Source of the DNA: a virus
Lineage: Duplodnaviria; Heunggongvirae; Uroviricota; Caudoviricetes
Direction: 5' to 3' (one strand)
Virus record (IMG/VR): IMGVR_UViG_2585427775_000005
DNA: 45,946 nt
Part shown: positions 18,001-21,000 of the stretch, piece by piece
Layout: every line of letters begins with the position of its first letter
Numbering within the stretch: the first letter of the stretch is position 1
Position numbers: made by a program

Positions 18001-21000
18001 CATCCGAAAGCGGATCTGTCAAAGGGGCAGTACGGAACCGTGGGGCAGGGGCTGCATATCGCCAAAAAACTGCTGCCGTTTATACCGGCGAATGCGGGCA
18101 TTCTGCTGGTACCTTGCTGCCGTGGTGGCTCTGCGTTCACCACCGGAGCCGATGGCACATACAGTGATGCGAGTGGTGCCTCGGAGAATTCAACCCGCTG
18201 GGGTGTGGACAAGCCGCTGTATAAGGACCTTATCGGTCGAACAAAAGCAGCACTGAAGAAGAACCCGAAAAATGTGCTGTTTGCCGTGGTGTGGATGCAG
18301 GGGGAATTTGATTTTGGCGGCACGCCCGGAAATCACGCAGCACAGTTTGGTGCGCTGGTTGATAAATTCCGTGCAGACCTGACGGATATGGCAGGCCAGT
18401 GCGTTGGTGGCTCTGCTGGCGGTGTTCCCTGGATATGCGGGGACACGACGTATTTCTGGAAGCAGAAGAACGAATCCACGTACCAGACGGTGTACGGCAG
18501 CTATAAAAACAAAACGGAAAAGAATATCCATTTCGTACCGTTCATGACGGATGAGAACGGGGTGAATGTGCCGACGAACAAACCGGAAGAAGACCCGGAC
18601 ATTCCGGGTATCGGGTATTACGGTTCGAAATGGCGTGACAGCTCAGTCACCTGGACGTCACAGGACAGGGCCAGCCATTTCAGTTCCTGGGCACGTCGTG
18701 GGATTATTTCCGACCGTCTGGCAACGGCGATTCTTGTTCATGCCGGGAGAACAGCTGAATTCATTACCGGAAAACAGCCTGATACAGTGAAACCGGGTAA
18801 GCCTGCGGGTGAAGGTCCGGAGAGAGAGCCGGAAGCCCCGGTCAGTAACCGAACTCTGATGAGTCTGCTGGCGTCCGGCGAAGACCTTGCATCACAGGGC
18901 TGGCGCTATTATCACAAACCGGAGAGAGGAGGCAGTGTTGATAAAAACATTACTGAGACCGTGGTCAGTGATGAGGGTGCCACTGGTGGTAAGGCCCTGC
19001 AACTGAACAAACCGGAAAACCACATCTGGTTTCTGGAGCATGATGCAGTCGGGCAGGGGGCAGAGTTGCTGAAGAAAGGCGGACGTGTAAGCGTGCGGTT
19101 TAAGGTACCGGGCTCACTGGTACAGAATCGGTTTGCCCTGGGTATTTACTGGCAGTTGTCGTCCCTGCCGGAGGGGGTGACGCTGGCAGAGGAAGGCAAC
19201 GACATACTGATGTCCTTCTTCCTGCAGACGGATGCGACGAACCTGAACGCGATGTACCACAAGAAGCAGAATGCGAAGCTGGATACGTTCGGGGTCTTTG
19301 ATAACGGATGGCACACACTGGCTTTTGAGTTTGCCGGAAACAACAGCATTCAGGTGACACCTGTACTGGATGAGAAACGGGGAGCGCCGTTCACACTGGT
19401 GAAGTCACCGGCATCGGCGGCGGCTGACAAACTGCAACTGACCGACGTATCAAAGGTGGCGACGTATACGCTGCTGATTGACAGTGTGAAGGTGGAAGTG
19501 AACAGCACAGACACTGCGGCATGATAAAAAAAGCCGCCAGTTACCGCAGGCGACTGGCGGGGTGAGCTCTATGGACACTCCAGAGAAACATTTTGGTACA
19601 TGAACATTTTTAAATTAAAAATATTCTTATTGTCAATATGTGTCAGCGGTATTTTCGGGGCAAAAAATCCACCAGTAAGCACAGGGCGAAATGCGTCATG
19701 CTTCTGGTGGAAATAGTACGGCTGTGAGGTTTTATTGTCATACTTGTAATTTTTCTGTGCAAAAACGATTCTGAATGTCAATACCGTTGATAAGGAATTG
19801 TTGAGCACACAGAGTAACTGCACGAGGCTGTCAGTGGAGCACTGGCGGCCTTTTTTATGTTGTGAGCTTCCGGATTGCGGGATTGCGGGAGACGGGGTAT
19901 GTACCAGATGGAAAAAATCACAACAGGTGTGTCATACACCACGTCAGCGGTGGGAACGGGCTACTGGTTCCTGCAGTTGCTGGACAGGGTTTCCCCGTCT
20001 CAGTGGGCGGCAATTGGTGTGCTGGGAAGTCTGTTTTTCGGGCTGCTGACGTACCTGACGAACCTGTATTTCAAAATCAAAGAGGACCGGCGTAAGGCCG
20101 CTCGGGGAGAGTAAATAATGAACCATGAAGAAATGAATCAGCGCTTCAGTCGCCTGGAAAATGAAATTGCTGAACTGAATAAAAAACTGTCGGCGCTGAT
20201 GCCTTCTGAAGATGAAAAAAAACGCCGCGATGAGCAGTTTGCTGCGTTTGACGATTATTGTCGGAAAGTGATGAGCAGAAATCTCGCAGAGTGTTTCAGT
20301 ATTCATAATGATAATTTCAGTGACCTGGAATGGGAGTGTAACCGGCCATCCTTTGTTGTATCCGGTGATGCTGGGAAAATAACCATCTCAGAAAATGGGA
20401 AAGTAACACCGCCATCGCACCAGCACAGTGAGGAGCTCATTGAATTTGCCATTGATTACCTGAAGAACAATAAAAAGCAGGGGCTGATGAAGTGCATTGG
20501 TCGTTGCATGGGATATCTGCAGGTAGCTGCTGAGATTGAAGCGCTGGCCAGTGGTGCTGATAAGGATGCAATTGTGCGGGAGGCTCTTCTTCGTGATTTT
20601 AATACTCCACCCTTTAAAAAAGTGCCGGCTTACTGGCTTCATCCGGGGCTGACTTATCTTAAAGTGCGTATTTAGTGGGCCAGGGACAGCGGCTGAATAT
20701 TTAATATATCCATGAACACCAAAATCAAATACGGCCTGTCGGCTGCCGTTCTGGCGCTGATTGCCGCTGGTGCGCCTGCGCCTGACATTCTCGACCAGTT
20801 TCTGGATGAAAAGGAAGGCAACCACACCACAGCATACCGTGATGGTGCGGGTATCTGGACCATCTGCCGAGGTGCCATCATGGTGGATGGTAAGCCTGTG
20901 ATTCCTGGCATGAAGCTGTCGAAGGAAAAATGCGACTGGGTTAACACTATCGAACGGGATAAGGCGCTGGCGTGGGTGGAGAAAAACATCAGAGTGCCAC

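Follow-up and report, generated by a model that had tools for sequence, protein, structure and literature searches.

A probable DUF1327-less member of the YdfR family between the pinholin and endolysin genes of a prophage lysis cassette

The DNA analyzed here, referred to as the window, is a stretch of 45,946 nucleotides from a tailed virus (Caudoviricetes; IMG/VR record IMGVR_UViG_2585427775_000005), in which a lysis cassette carries an additional open reading frame (ORF) between the genes for the holin (S) and the endolysin (R). This slot ORF runs from ATG to TAG over 185 codons (20118-20675, + strand, from the ORF list) and is very probably a genuine coding accessory gene of the prophage late operon, namely, the headless (DUF1327-less) isoform of a YdfR-family or phrog_1085 gene. 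A preliminary description of the same DNA had reported a 185-amino-acid (aa) ORF between a pinholin and a signal-arrest-release (SAR) endolysin; the gene was found to be real, and its neighbors carry the expected families, PF04971 and PF00959. Over 12.5 kb the window differs by 3 mismatches from a prophage of Escherichia coli GE3 (NZ_CP012376.1), in which the counterpart of the slot ORF is listed in RefSeq as WP_032185428.1, a "hypothetical protein."

Modular relationship of the slot ORF to YdfR

The slot ORF matched phrog_1085, a PHROGs family of unknown function, with an E value of 3.5e-113 (379 bits), over profile positions 117 to 296 of 296 only. No Pfam, NCBIfam, or PADLOC match above noise was obtained, and DUF1327 (PF07041) was not found at an E value of ≤0.1; weak hits to Relaxase_C, DegQ, CdaM, and PbeC all had E values of >0.01, fell within the coiled coil, and were rejected as noise. 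The earlier statement that the product has no recognizable family thus holds for Pfam and NCBIfam but not for PHROGs, nor with regard to long relatives that are labeled "YdfR family." In the same S-R slot, relatives carry ORFs of 268 to 329 aa (Shiga toxin 2 [Stx2] phage 86, Stx2a phage Stx2_95, and many E. coli chromosomes), for which NCBI gives the labels "YdfR family" or "DUF1327 domain-containing." The first ~115 residues of these long slot ORFs are DUF1327 (PF07041, E 1e-40 to 1e-45), and the remainder aligns with the window ORF at 68 to 89% identity, the window ORF being 85 to 89% identical to the C-terminal two-thirds of the 297- to 329-aa slot proteins. YdfR of E. coli K-12, on the other hand, consists of nothing but the DUF1327 head; its match to phrog_1085 is confined to positions 1 to 79, and it has no alignable residues in common with the window ORF. 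On these alignments, the window ORF and ydfR are complementary pieces of one modular gene, of which the full-length architecture is a DUF1327 head, a short leucine zipper linker, and a C-terminal domain that we designate C1. The claim that Qin-type prophages carry a different small gene in this slot was correct inasmuch as no residues are shared, and incomplete in that ydfR is the N-terminal module of the same long proteins.

Comparison with individual members of the family supports this division. The long proteins (phage 86 gp05 [YP_794052.1], 268 aa; E. coli AVS0973, 297 aa; Stx2_95, 329 aa) lie, as in the window, between a near-identical holin and endolysin and share the zipper linker and C1 with the window ORF, which lacks their ~115-aa N-terminal DUF1327. 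Between the gene and R, the 297- and 329-aa forms have the 36-nucleotide (nt) spacer seen behind the window ORF; phage 86 has ~450 nt there, with a reverse ORF inside. YdfR (b1555 of the K-12 Qin prophage, PF07041) occupies the same S-R slot, in the order essQ-ydfR-rrrQ, and belongs to the same PHROG family by way of the long forms; it is head only, whereas the window ORF is linker plus tail only, and the reported binding of RNase E and RNA maps to the part that is missing from the window ORF (PMC13232886).

Across the slot genes, the head is DUF1327 or none, followed by the zipper linker, and the tail is C1, an unrelated C2, or none (as in ydfR). C2 comprises ~100 aa without a family assignment and stands behind the same zipper in forms that carry DUF1327 and in forms that lack it (1681-1983 in locus L008 and 1972-2274 in locus L009 of our survey), the zipper modules of these two loci being 72 to 97% identical to that of the window ORF. 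The short C2 form (Stx2a phage Stx2_14744, 161 aa) has the same slot and the same start as the window ORF and is 95 to 97% identical to it over the first 60 to 62 residues; the long C2 form (Stx1a phage Stx1_499, 263 aa), in the same slot, carries DUF1327 and has a zipper of ~70% identity. In both, the C-terminal ~100 residues are unrelated to C1, and ~510 nt of apparently noncoding DNA separate the gene from R. In a common 213-aa allele, the modules are unfused and in the opposite order, a zipper-plus-C1 gene being followed by a separate 75-aa DUF1327 ORF (L012 to L015, 3670-3897); in these loci, a different, reverse-strand ORF of 95 aa comes next.

The window allele itself is a mosaic. Its zipper is ~63% identical at the protein level to that of the 297-aa form and its C1 domain 97% identical, with an approximate boundary at 20230-20236 (DNA alignment and module identities; switch near 20233). 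The headless gene begins with MN, as do some long forms (MNK), other long forms beginning with MKK or MTQ, and its distance from the holin gene is the same. A head that was lost or gained in frame right at the start codon would fit this arrangement.

The predicted properties of the protein agree with a linker joined to a separate domain. The product (21.2 kDa, pI 6.0, grand average of hydropathy of −0.57) has no transmembrane (TM) segment or signal peptide, with a maximum Kyte-Doolittle 19-residue score of 0.94, and because of this lack of a TM segment and low hydropathy it is predicted to be soluble and cytoplasmic. A first AlphaFold run on an alignment of E. coli sequences only was unusable (predicted local distance difference test [pLDDT] score of 55), and relatives of 25 to 40% identity were added for the final AlphaFold (AF2) model, which reached a pLDDT score of 82.4 overall, 81 to 96 over C1, and 75 to 91 over residues 1 to 50. 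Helices were predicted at residues 3 to 27 and 31 to 67, with a flexible stretch at 59 to 69, and a heptad scan found hydrophobic residues at the a/d positions (M6, F10, L13, I17, L20, L24, and L27). The coiled-coil-like N terminus noted earlier is thereby supported. Residues 1 to 67 (20118-20318, +), with two long helices of which the first is a three-heptad leucine zipper (AF2 and heptad scan), probably form an oligomerization module. The C1 domain, delimited by AF2 and conserved motifs, spans residues 79 to 185 (20352-20672, +) and is predicted to fold as a three-stranded beta-meander (79 to 97) followed by four helices (101 to 184). No fold match to the C1 or slot ORF model was found in the PDB or among viral protein structures, and PDB sequence searches with the single sequence or a profile returned coiled-coil noise only.

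Homology and structure searches, which the preliminary description had proposed, thus returned no described function and no fold relative, and neither large homology searches nor an exhaustive profile search recovered a named or characterized relative of the slot ORF; nothing on the C1 domain was found in the literature on ydfR, DUF1327, essQ, pinholins, and Stx cassettes. Judged from these searches, the family is one that is already catalogued (phrog_1085) but functionally uncharacterized, with C1 lacking a family description or a detectable fold relative. In E. coli AVS0973 (L003 2550-3443), the intact 297-aa form is annotated by the NCBI Prokaryotic Genome Annotation Pipeline (PGAP) as a pseudogene, "YdfR family protein, incomplete, missing C-terminus" (2553-2888), and the C1-coding part is unannotated although the reading frame is uninterrupted, apparently a systematic artifact that hides C1 in many RefSeq genomes. 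Some relatives that had appeared to be N-terminally truncated turned out to be intact 329-aa forms, the truncation being an artifact of the start codon rule.

The lysis cassette, selection, and distribution

Upstream of the slot ORF lies the gene for a P21-type class II holin of the pinholin family with the dual-start motif MYQM (19899-20114, +; PF04971, E 6.7e-33), and downstream lies that for the SAR-type endolysin R, an R21-like lysozyme (20712-21245, +; PF00959, E 5.6e-23) whose N terminus, MNTKIKYGLSAAVLALIAAGAPAP, has a SAR-like look. The dual-start extension of the holin is MYQ (window 19899-19910), as in phage 933W, and is MKS in EssQ of Qin and in L018. The MYQ holin is thus without the lysine to which the longer S21 product owes its antiholin character. 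The holin stop codon ends at 20114 and is separated by 3 nt (ATA) from the ATG of the slot ORF, so that the earlier reading of a start 4 nt after the holin stop was right, whereas the 37 nt given for the gap to the endolysin gene is in fact 36 nt. The slot ORF is served by a Shine-Dalgarno sequence, GGGGAGAG (20104-20111, +), within the last codons of the holin gene. This site, described earlier as strong, agrees with AGGAGG at 4 of 6 positions and is good but not exceptional. The 36-nt spacer before R (20676-20711, +) is AU rich and without a Shine-Dalgarno sequence (best agreement with AGGAGG, 2 of 6), no significant RNA structure was found in it (z score of +1.1), and the same spacer precedes R in most C1-bearing loci surveyed. 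In the insert-free phage 933W, where R follows S at a distance of 4 nt, GGGGAGAG drives R (L104 540-555); in the window it drives the slot ORF. An antisense ORF of 145 aa (20388-20825, −), which is also found in L003 and covers the 3′ half of the slot ORF together with the beginning of R, was judged spurious from its context alone.

With a simple consensus scan, no sigma-70-like site was found on the + strand between 19400 and 22400, and no terminator was found flanking the slot ORF. Because it has no promoter or terminator of its own and a shared Shine-Dalgarno sequence, the slot ORF appears to be embedded in the late lysis transcript and not to be an autonomous moron. We infer that it is expressed late, in a Q-dependent manner, and only within the S-R-Rz transcript; such expression is established for lambdoid late operons (PMC10462455). 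A terminator-like, GC-rich hairpin with a T-run just upstream of the holin gene (19824-19852, +; a 13-bp stem and then a TTTTTATG tail) is presumably read through by Q-modified late transcription. Like the slot ORF, the late-region morons of lambdoid phages (bor, lom, stx, and nanS-p) are lower-GC accessory genes near the lysis genes, but a classical moron comes with a promoter and a terminator of its own, whereas the slot ORF has neither and relies on the 3′ end of the holin gene for its ribosome-binding site. Its designation as an insert at a known moron site can accordingly be kept for an accessory gene in the S-R slot, and not for a self-contained unit, since it borrows the Shine-Dalgarno sequence of R.

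The holin of phage 933W is identical to the holins of cassettes with a long C1 gene (L003) or a C2 gene (L008) and 99% identical to that of the window, and its endolysin R is 94% identical to that of the window. Because 933W lyses without a slot gene while using a near-identical cassette, the slot gene is accessory and dispensable for lysis and not part of the core lysis machinery. Co-adaptation with the holin or endolysin was rejected, the holin being identical with and without the insert. The slot ORF has no holin family match and no TM domain and thus does not qualify as a holin or antiholin; C1 is found at 951 places and the holin at 8,849 in complete E. coli genomes, which does not fit an essential lysis component, and no known lysis function was found for the slot ORF.

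Conservation of the reading frame argues for a real gene. Among 89 related loci, defined by a gene between holin and lysozyme, the slot ORF is intact in 81 (43 of 48 distinct sequences) and frameshifted in 8, mostly at A-runs. The intact short-form loci number 47, with 27 distinct sequences, and the position of the start codon is kept in all of them, so that the short form is read as a maintained allele, not an accident. Median pairwise ratios of nonsynonymous to synonymous substitution rates (dN/dS) were 0.24 for C1 and 0.44 for the zipper, compared to 0.07 for both the holin and the lysozyme, because of which selection on the slot gene is read as purifying but relaxed relative to the adjacent lysis genes. 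The GC content of the slot ORF (45%; 44% at third codon positions [GC3]) differs from that of its neighbors (54% and 60 to 68%, respectively), a foreign composition, and no family overlapping the slot ORF was found in an Rfam scan. The preliminary description had held that disruption or absence in close relatives without a phenotype would speak against its proposal, and this was found in part: the gene is absent from 933W and frameshifted in ~9% of copies. One frame break (L093) is at the position of an A8 run, and those of L057 to L059 are at the first A-run. Such breaks could be real slippage, pseudogenization, or homopolymer sequencing errors in draft assemblies. The homopolymers in the window copy are A6 at 20181-20186, A8 at 20215-20222 (codons E-K-K-R), and A6 at 20616-20621.

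The slot gene is common in E. coli prophages and is not a unique insert. A survey of other S-R cassettes, suggested earlier as a check, recovered slot genes with DUF1327, C1, C2, or none. Counted as what megablast detects in 5,426 complete E. coli genomes, the P21-type holin is present in 2,452 genomes (8,849 places), DUF1327 in 3,044 (6,489 places), C1 in 776 (951 places), and the C2 tail in 133 (199 places; identity of 99% or more). The headless junction, from the holin stop to MNHEEMNQ, is present in 253 genomes, among them O111:H8, O55:H7, and O145 strains. Any part of the slot ORF was found in 20 of 50,697 phage records, with C1 in 5, and a relative was found on 177 IMG/VR contigs. The exhaustive profile search, run on 1.84 billion cluster representatives, returned 44 clusters only, and a set of 5.8 billion proteins returned only "hypothetical protein" entries from Escherichia, Shigella, Salmonella, and unnamed assemblies. 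A scan of species-representative genomes found 3 loci, a number that understates the distribution, as a single peptide pattern was used that misses Salmonella.

Distant members of 25 to 40% identity retain invariant residues in C1 (G128, R129, L134, Q135, A137, P165, K167, W173, P176, and Y180) and its two motifs, GRCMGxLQxAAEIE and (D/N)xPPFK..W..PG..YLK. Several have a DUF1327-like head, and others are headless; the headless Salmonella forms are 165 to 185 aa long, with ~37% identity. In each of six informative contexts from Salmonella or Logan, the gene has the Q antiterminator gene on one side and a class II holin gene (PF04971 or PF16080) on the other, with lysozyme and Rz genes after the holin gene. 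Because these homologues lie between Q and the holin and not between S and R, what is conserved is membership in a late operon beside a pinholin-type cassette, not the exact slot. Phage 86 and one Salmonella lineage have a convergent ORF of ~104 aa directly behind the C1 gene (L002 3588-3902, L010 2154-2468, and L099 4785-5102, all −; 41% identity, E 2e-33), and the position of this gene pair relative to the holin differs between E. coli Stx phages and Salmonella. The convergent ORF has no Pfam family, is absent from the window, and is conserved only in a subset of loci. The ORFs of ~190 aa that follow C1 in L006 and L107 bear no relation to each other and were rejected as a conserved partner.

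Proposed mechanism and rival explanations

Taken as a whole, our best explanation is that the slot ORF is a headless, late-acting accessory gene of the YdfR family that exerts both the mechanism and the effect in cis set out below; we regard this combined account as evenly poised between right and wrong. The mechanism itself, in which the product is a late-expressed, oligomeric factor that binds a host target, is put forward tentatively, with low confidence. The zipper would oligomerize the slot protein, and C1 would serve to bind proteins, its target in late infection being one of the host or of the phage; the tails C1 and C2 would be interchangeable binding modules. The family may act on the host RNA degradosome or on RNA metabolism during late gene expression, the degradosome being a plausible target for the head, and the short isoform would supply the activity of C1 without a tether to RNase E. 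A role in RNA metabolism is suggested because C1 is repeatedly fused to or found beside DUF1327 and because YdfR is reported to bind RNase E. The linkage between C1 and DUF1327 takes the form of fusions, of neighboring genes in the opposite order, and of a DUF1327-like head joined to C1 in distant homologues. For K-12 YdfR (DUF1327), binding to the catalytic half of RNase E has been reported from bacterial two-hybrid assay (BACTH) and copurification, with residues 1 to 72 sufficing, as has copurification with RNA (PMC13232886). Independently of its product, the insert takes over the Shine-Dalgarno sequence of R and leaves R behind the 36-nt spacer, which may lower or delay synthesis of the SAR endolysin relative to the holin and so may change the endolysin-to-holin ratio.

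Several points weigh against this account. Nothing connects C1 itself to RNase E or RNA, and the interaction with RNase E maps to residues 1 to 72 of YdfR (PMC13232886), a region that is missing from the slot ORF. Overproduction of YdfR altered few transcripts (PMC13232886). Fold and profile searches of C1 gave no recognizable fold or motif that hints at an activity. Fusion partners need not share a pathway, and the same zipper is also joined to the unrelated C2. As 8 of the 89 relatives are frameshifted, the role of the gene would be dispensable in many lysogens. As for the effect in cis, the R leader is AU rich and unstructured and could initiate without a Shine-Dalgarno sequence, in which case the effect may be negligible.

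A cytoplasmic regulator of lysis timing, which would bind the charged cytoplasmic C-terminal tail of the pinholin or the basic cytoplasmic N terminus of the SAR endolysin and thereby advance or delay triggering, is an unlikely alternative, yet one with some precedent. The cytoplasmic antiholin RIII of phage T4, which is small, helical, and soluble and modulates its holin from the cytoplasmic side, is a conceptual parallel, although T4 has a different holin class and a lysis inhibition circuit that lambdoid phages lack. No sequence relationship between the slot ORF and RIII was found in any search made. The releasin gp25 of phage Mu (DUF2730), a non-holin accessory protein near a SAR endolysin gene, acts on SAR endolysins from the cytoplasmic side and has an acidic cytoplasmic domain (PMC9239132); the analogy is functional only, since releasin is anchored by an N-terminal TM segment and the endolysin depends on it for its release, whereas the window ORF has no TM segment and no DUF2730 (PF10805) match and is dispensable. 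In the informative contexts, members of the family have a class II holin gene within ~1 kb and sit in the S-R slot in E. coli and Shigella and in the Q-to-holin interval in the six Salmonella or Logan contexts; with its start 3 nt past the holin stop and its Shine-Dalgarno sequence inside the holin gene, the slot protein is probably made in step with the holin. However, the Q-S and S-R intervals are generally permissive in lambdoid phages, so that linkage may mean tolerance, and in Salmonella other genes, some of them on the opposite strand, separate the C1 gene from the holin gene. Moreover, the holin, including its cytoplasmic tail, is identical without a slot gene (933W), with C1, and with C2, which leaves no sign of co-adaptation, and lysis by 933W without the gene and the frameshifts in ~9% of copies count against a timing function as well.

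A bolder extension, and a rather doubtful one, is that zipper plus C1 constitutes an unrecognized class of cytoplasmic lysis cassette component with an undescribed fold, kept beside class II holins from E. coli to Salmonella. Such a component might tune pinholin triggering or release of the SAR endolysin, and the fused isoforms might couple this control, or the stability of late mRNA, to RNase E via DUF1327.

The shuffling of modules (DUF1327 present or not, zipper alleles, and C1, C2, or no tail), the foreign composition (GC, 45%; GC3, 44%), and dN/dS values three to six times those of the lysis genes would also be expected of a factor in inter-phage or host conflict (counterdefense, exclusion, or a toxin-like effector) whose modules are exchanged in an arms race, with the convergent 104-aa ORF behind the C1 gene of phage 86 and Salmonella as a partner in some loci. 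The very narrow range (44 clusters among 1.84 billion, with all named matches in Escherichia, Shigella, or Salmonella) points in the same direction. We nevertheless consider this quite improbable: neither the slot ORF nor its distant homologues have a PADLOC match, no toxin-like or enzymatic motif was found, and the convergent partner is absent from the window. Without a promoter of its own, the gene is probably silent in the lysogen, and late expression is unusual for counterdefense genes.

That the slot ORF is a decaying remnant, a deletion derivative of a long YdfR-family gene that has lost its head and persists because it is recent or neutral, is very unlikely. It does lack the only named domain of the family, 8 of 89 loci are frameshifted, mostly at A-runs of the kind present in the window (A6, A8, and A6), and functional phages such as 933W are without the gene. 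A remnant would hardly be expected, however, to have dN/dS values well below 1, 27 distinct intact short-form alleles that all keep the position of the start codon, or a junction present in 253 genomes of several serotypes, and headless forms recur in Salmonella at ~37% identity while the C1 motifs remain invariant across 25 to 40% identity. Least credible of all is a cargo comparable to Stx and NanS-p, a signal-less protein that builds up late and, once the phage has lysed the cell, works outside it, for although the slot ORF shares its late operon with nanS-p (17551-19524) and, in relatives, with stx, has no export signal, and has its expression tied to lysis (PMC10462455), it shows no homology or fold similarity to a toxin, enzyme, or adhesin, its coiled coil and small helical domain with several cysteines are more typical of an intracellular protein, and the fusion to the RNase E-binding DUF1327 points to an intracellular target.

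Other features of the window and wider bearing

The remainder of the cassette lies downstream of R. The Rz i-spanin gene is located at 21727-22200 (+; PF03245, E 2e-47; PGAP places its start at 21742), with the ORF for the Rz1 lipoprotein embedded in it (21953-22138, from the ORF list). Between R and Rz are two small ORFs, at 21402-21584 (60 aa) and 21599-21730 (43 aa), with hydrophobic, TM-like segments and no family; at this place 933W and phage 86 carry the antirepressor gene ant. Downstream of Rz, roughly at the bor position of lambda and 933W, lies a small TonB-family (TonB_C) gene (22511-22837), and in the distant Logan locus L006 a TonB_C gene follows Rz on the opposite strand. Upstream, a NanS-p-like esterase of 657 aa (17551-19524) combines DUF1737, SASA, and DUF6645. 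The late region resembles the Stx phage layout, yet no stx genes are present, and genes of the TerB family and of DUF3927 fill the interval where stx would be. Side features of the late region were noted at window positions 15438-15689, 17127-17327, and 17551-19524. The window also has three tRNA genes (anticodons CAT, TCG, and TCT, the first being tRNA-Ile according to PGAP) and a match to the small RNA STnc100 (147 bits).

In nearly all Stx phages, lysis, and with it the release of toxin, is driven by cassettes of the P21-type pinholin and SAR endolysin (PMC8136144), and among the copies of this holin that can be detected in complete E. coli genomes, approximately 1 in 9 is accompanied by C1 (951 versus 8,849 places). 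The domain has no Pfam entry, and PGAP frequently either passes over it or labels the long gene, although intact, as a truncated pseudogene. The same holin and endolysin are found in nature without an insert, with the head only, with the tail only, or with both, which provides an experimental handle. If the tail has no effect, C1 stays a well-defined orphan domain for structural genomics; if it affects lysis timing, endolysin dosage, or RNA turnover, it would have a bearing on burst size and on the release of Stx.

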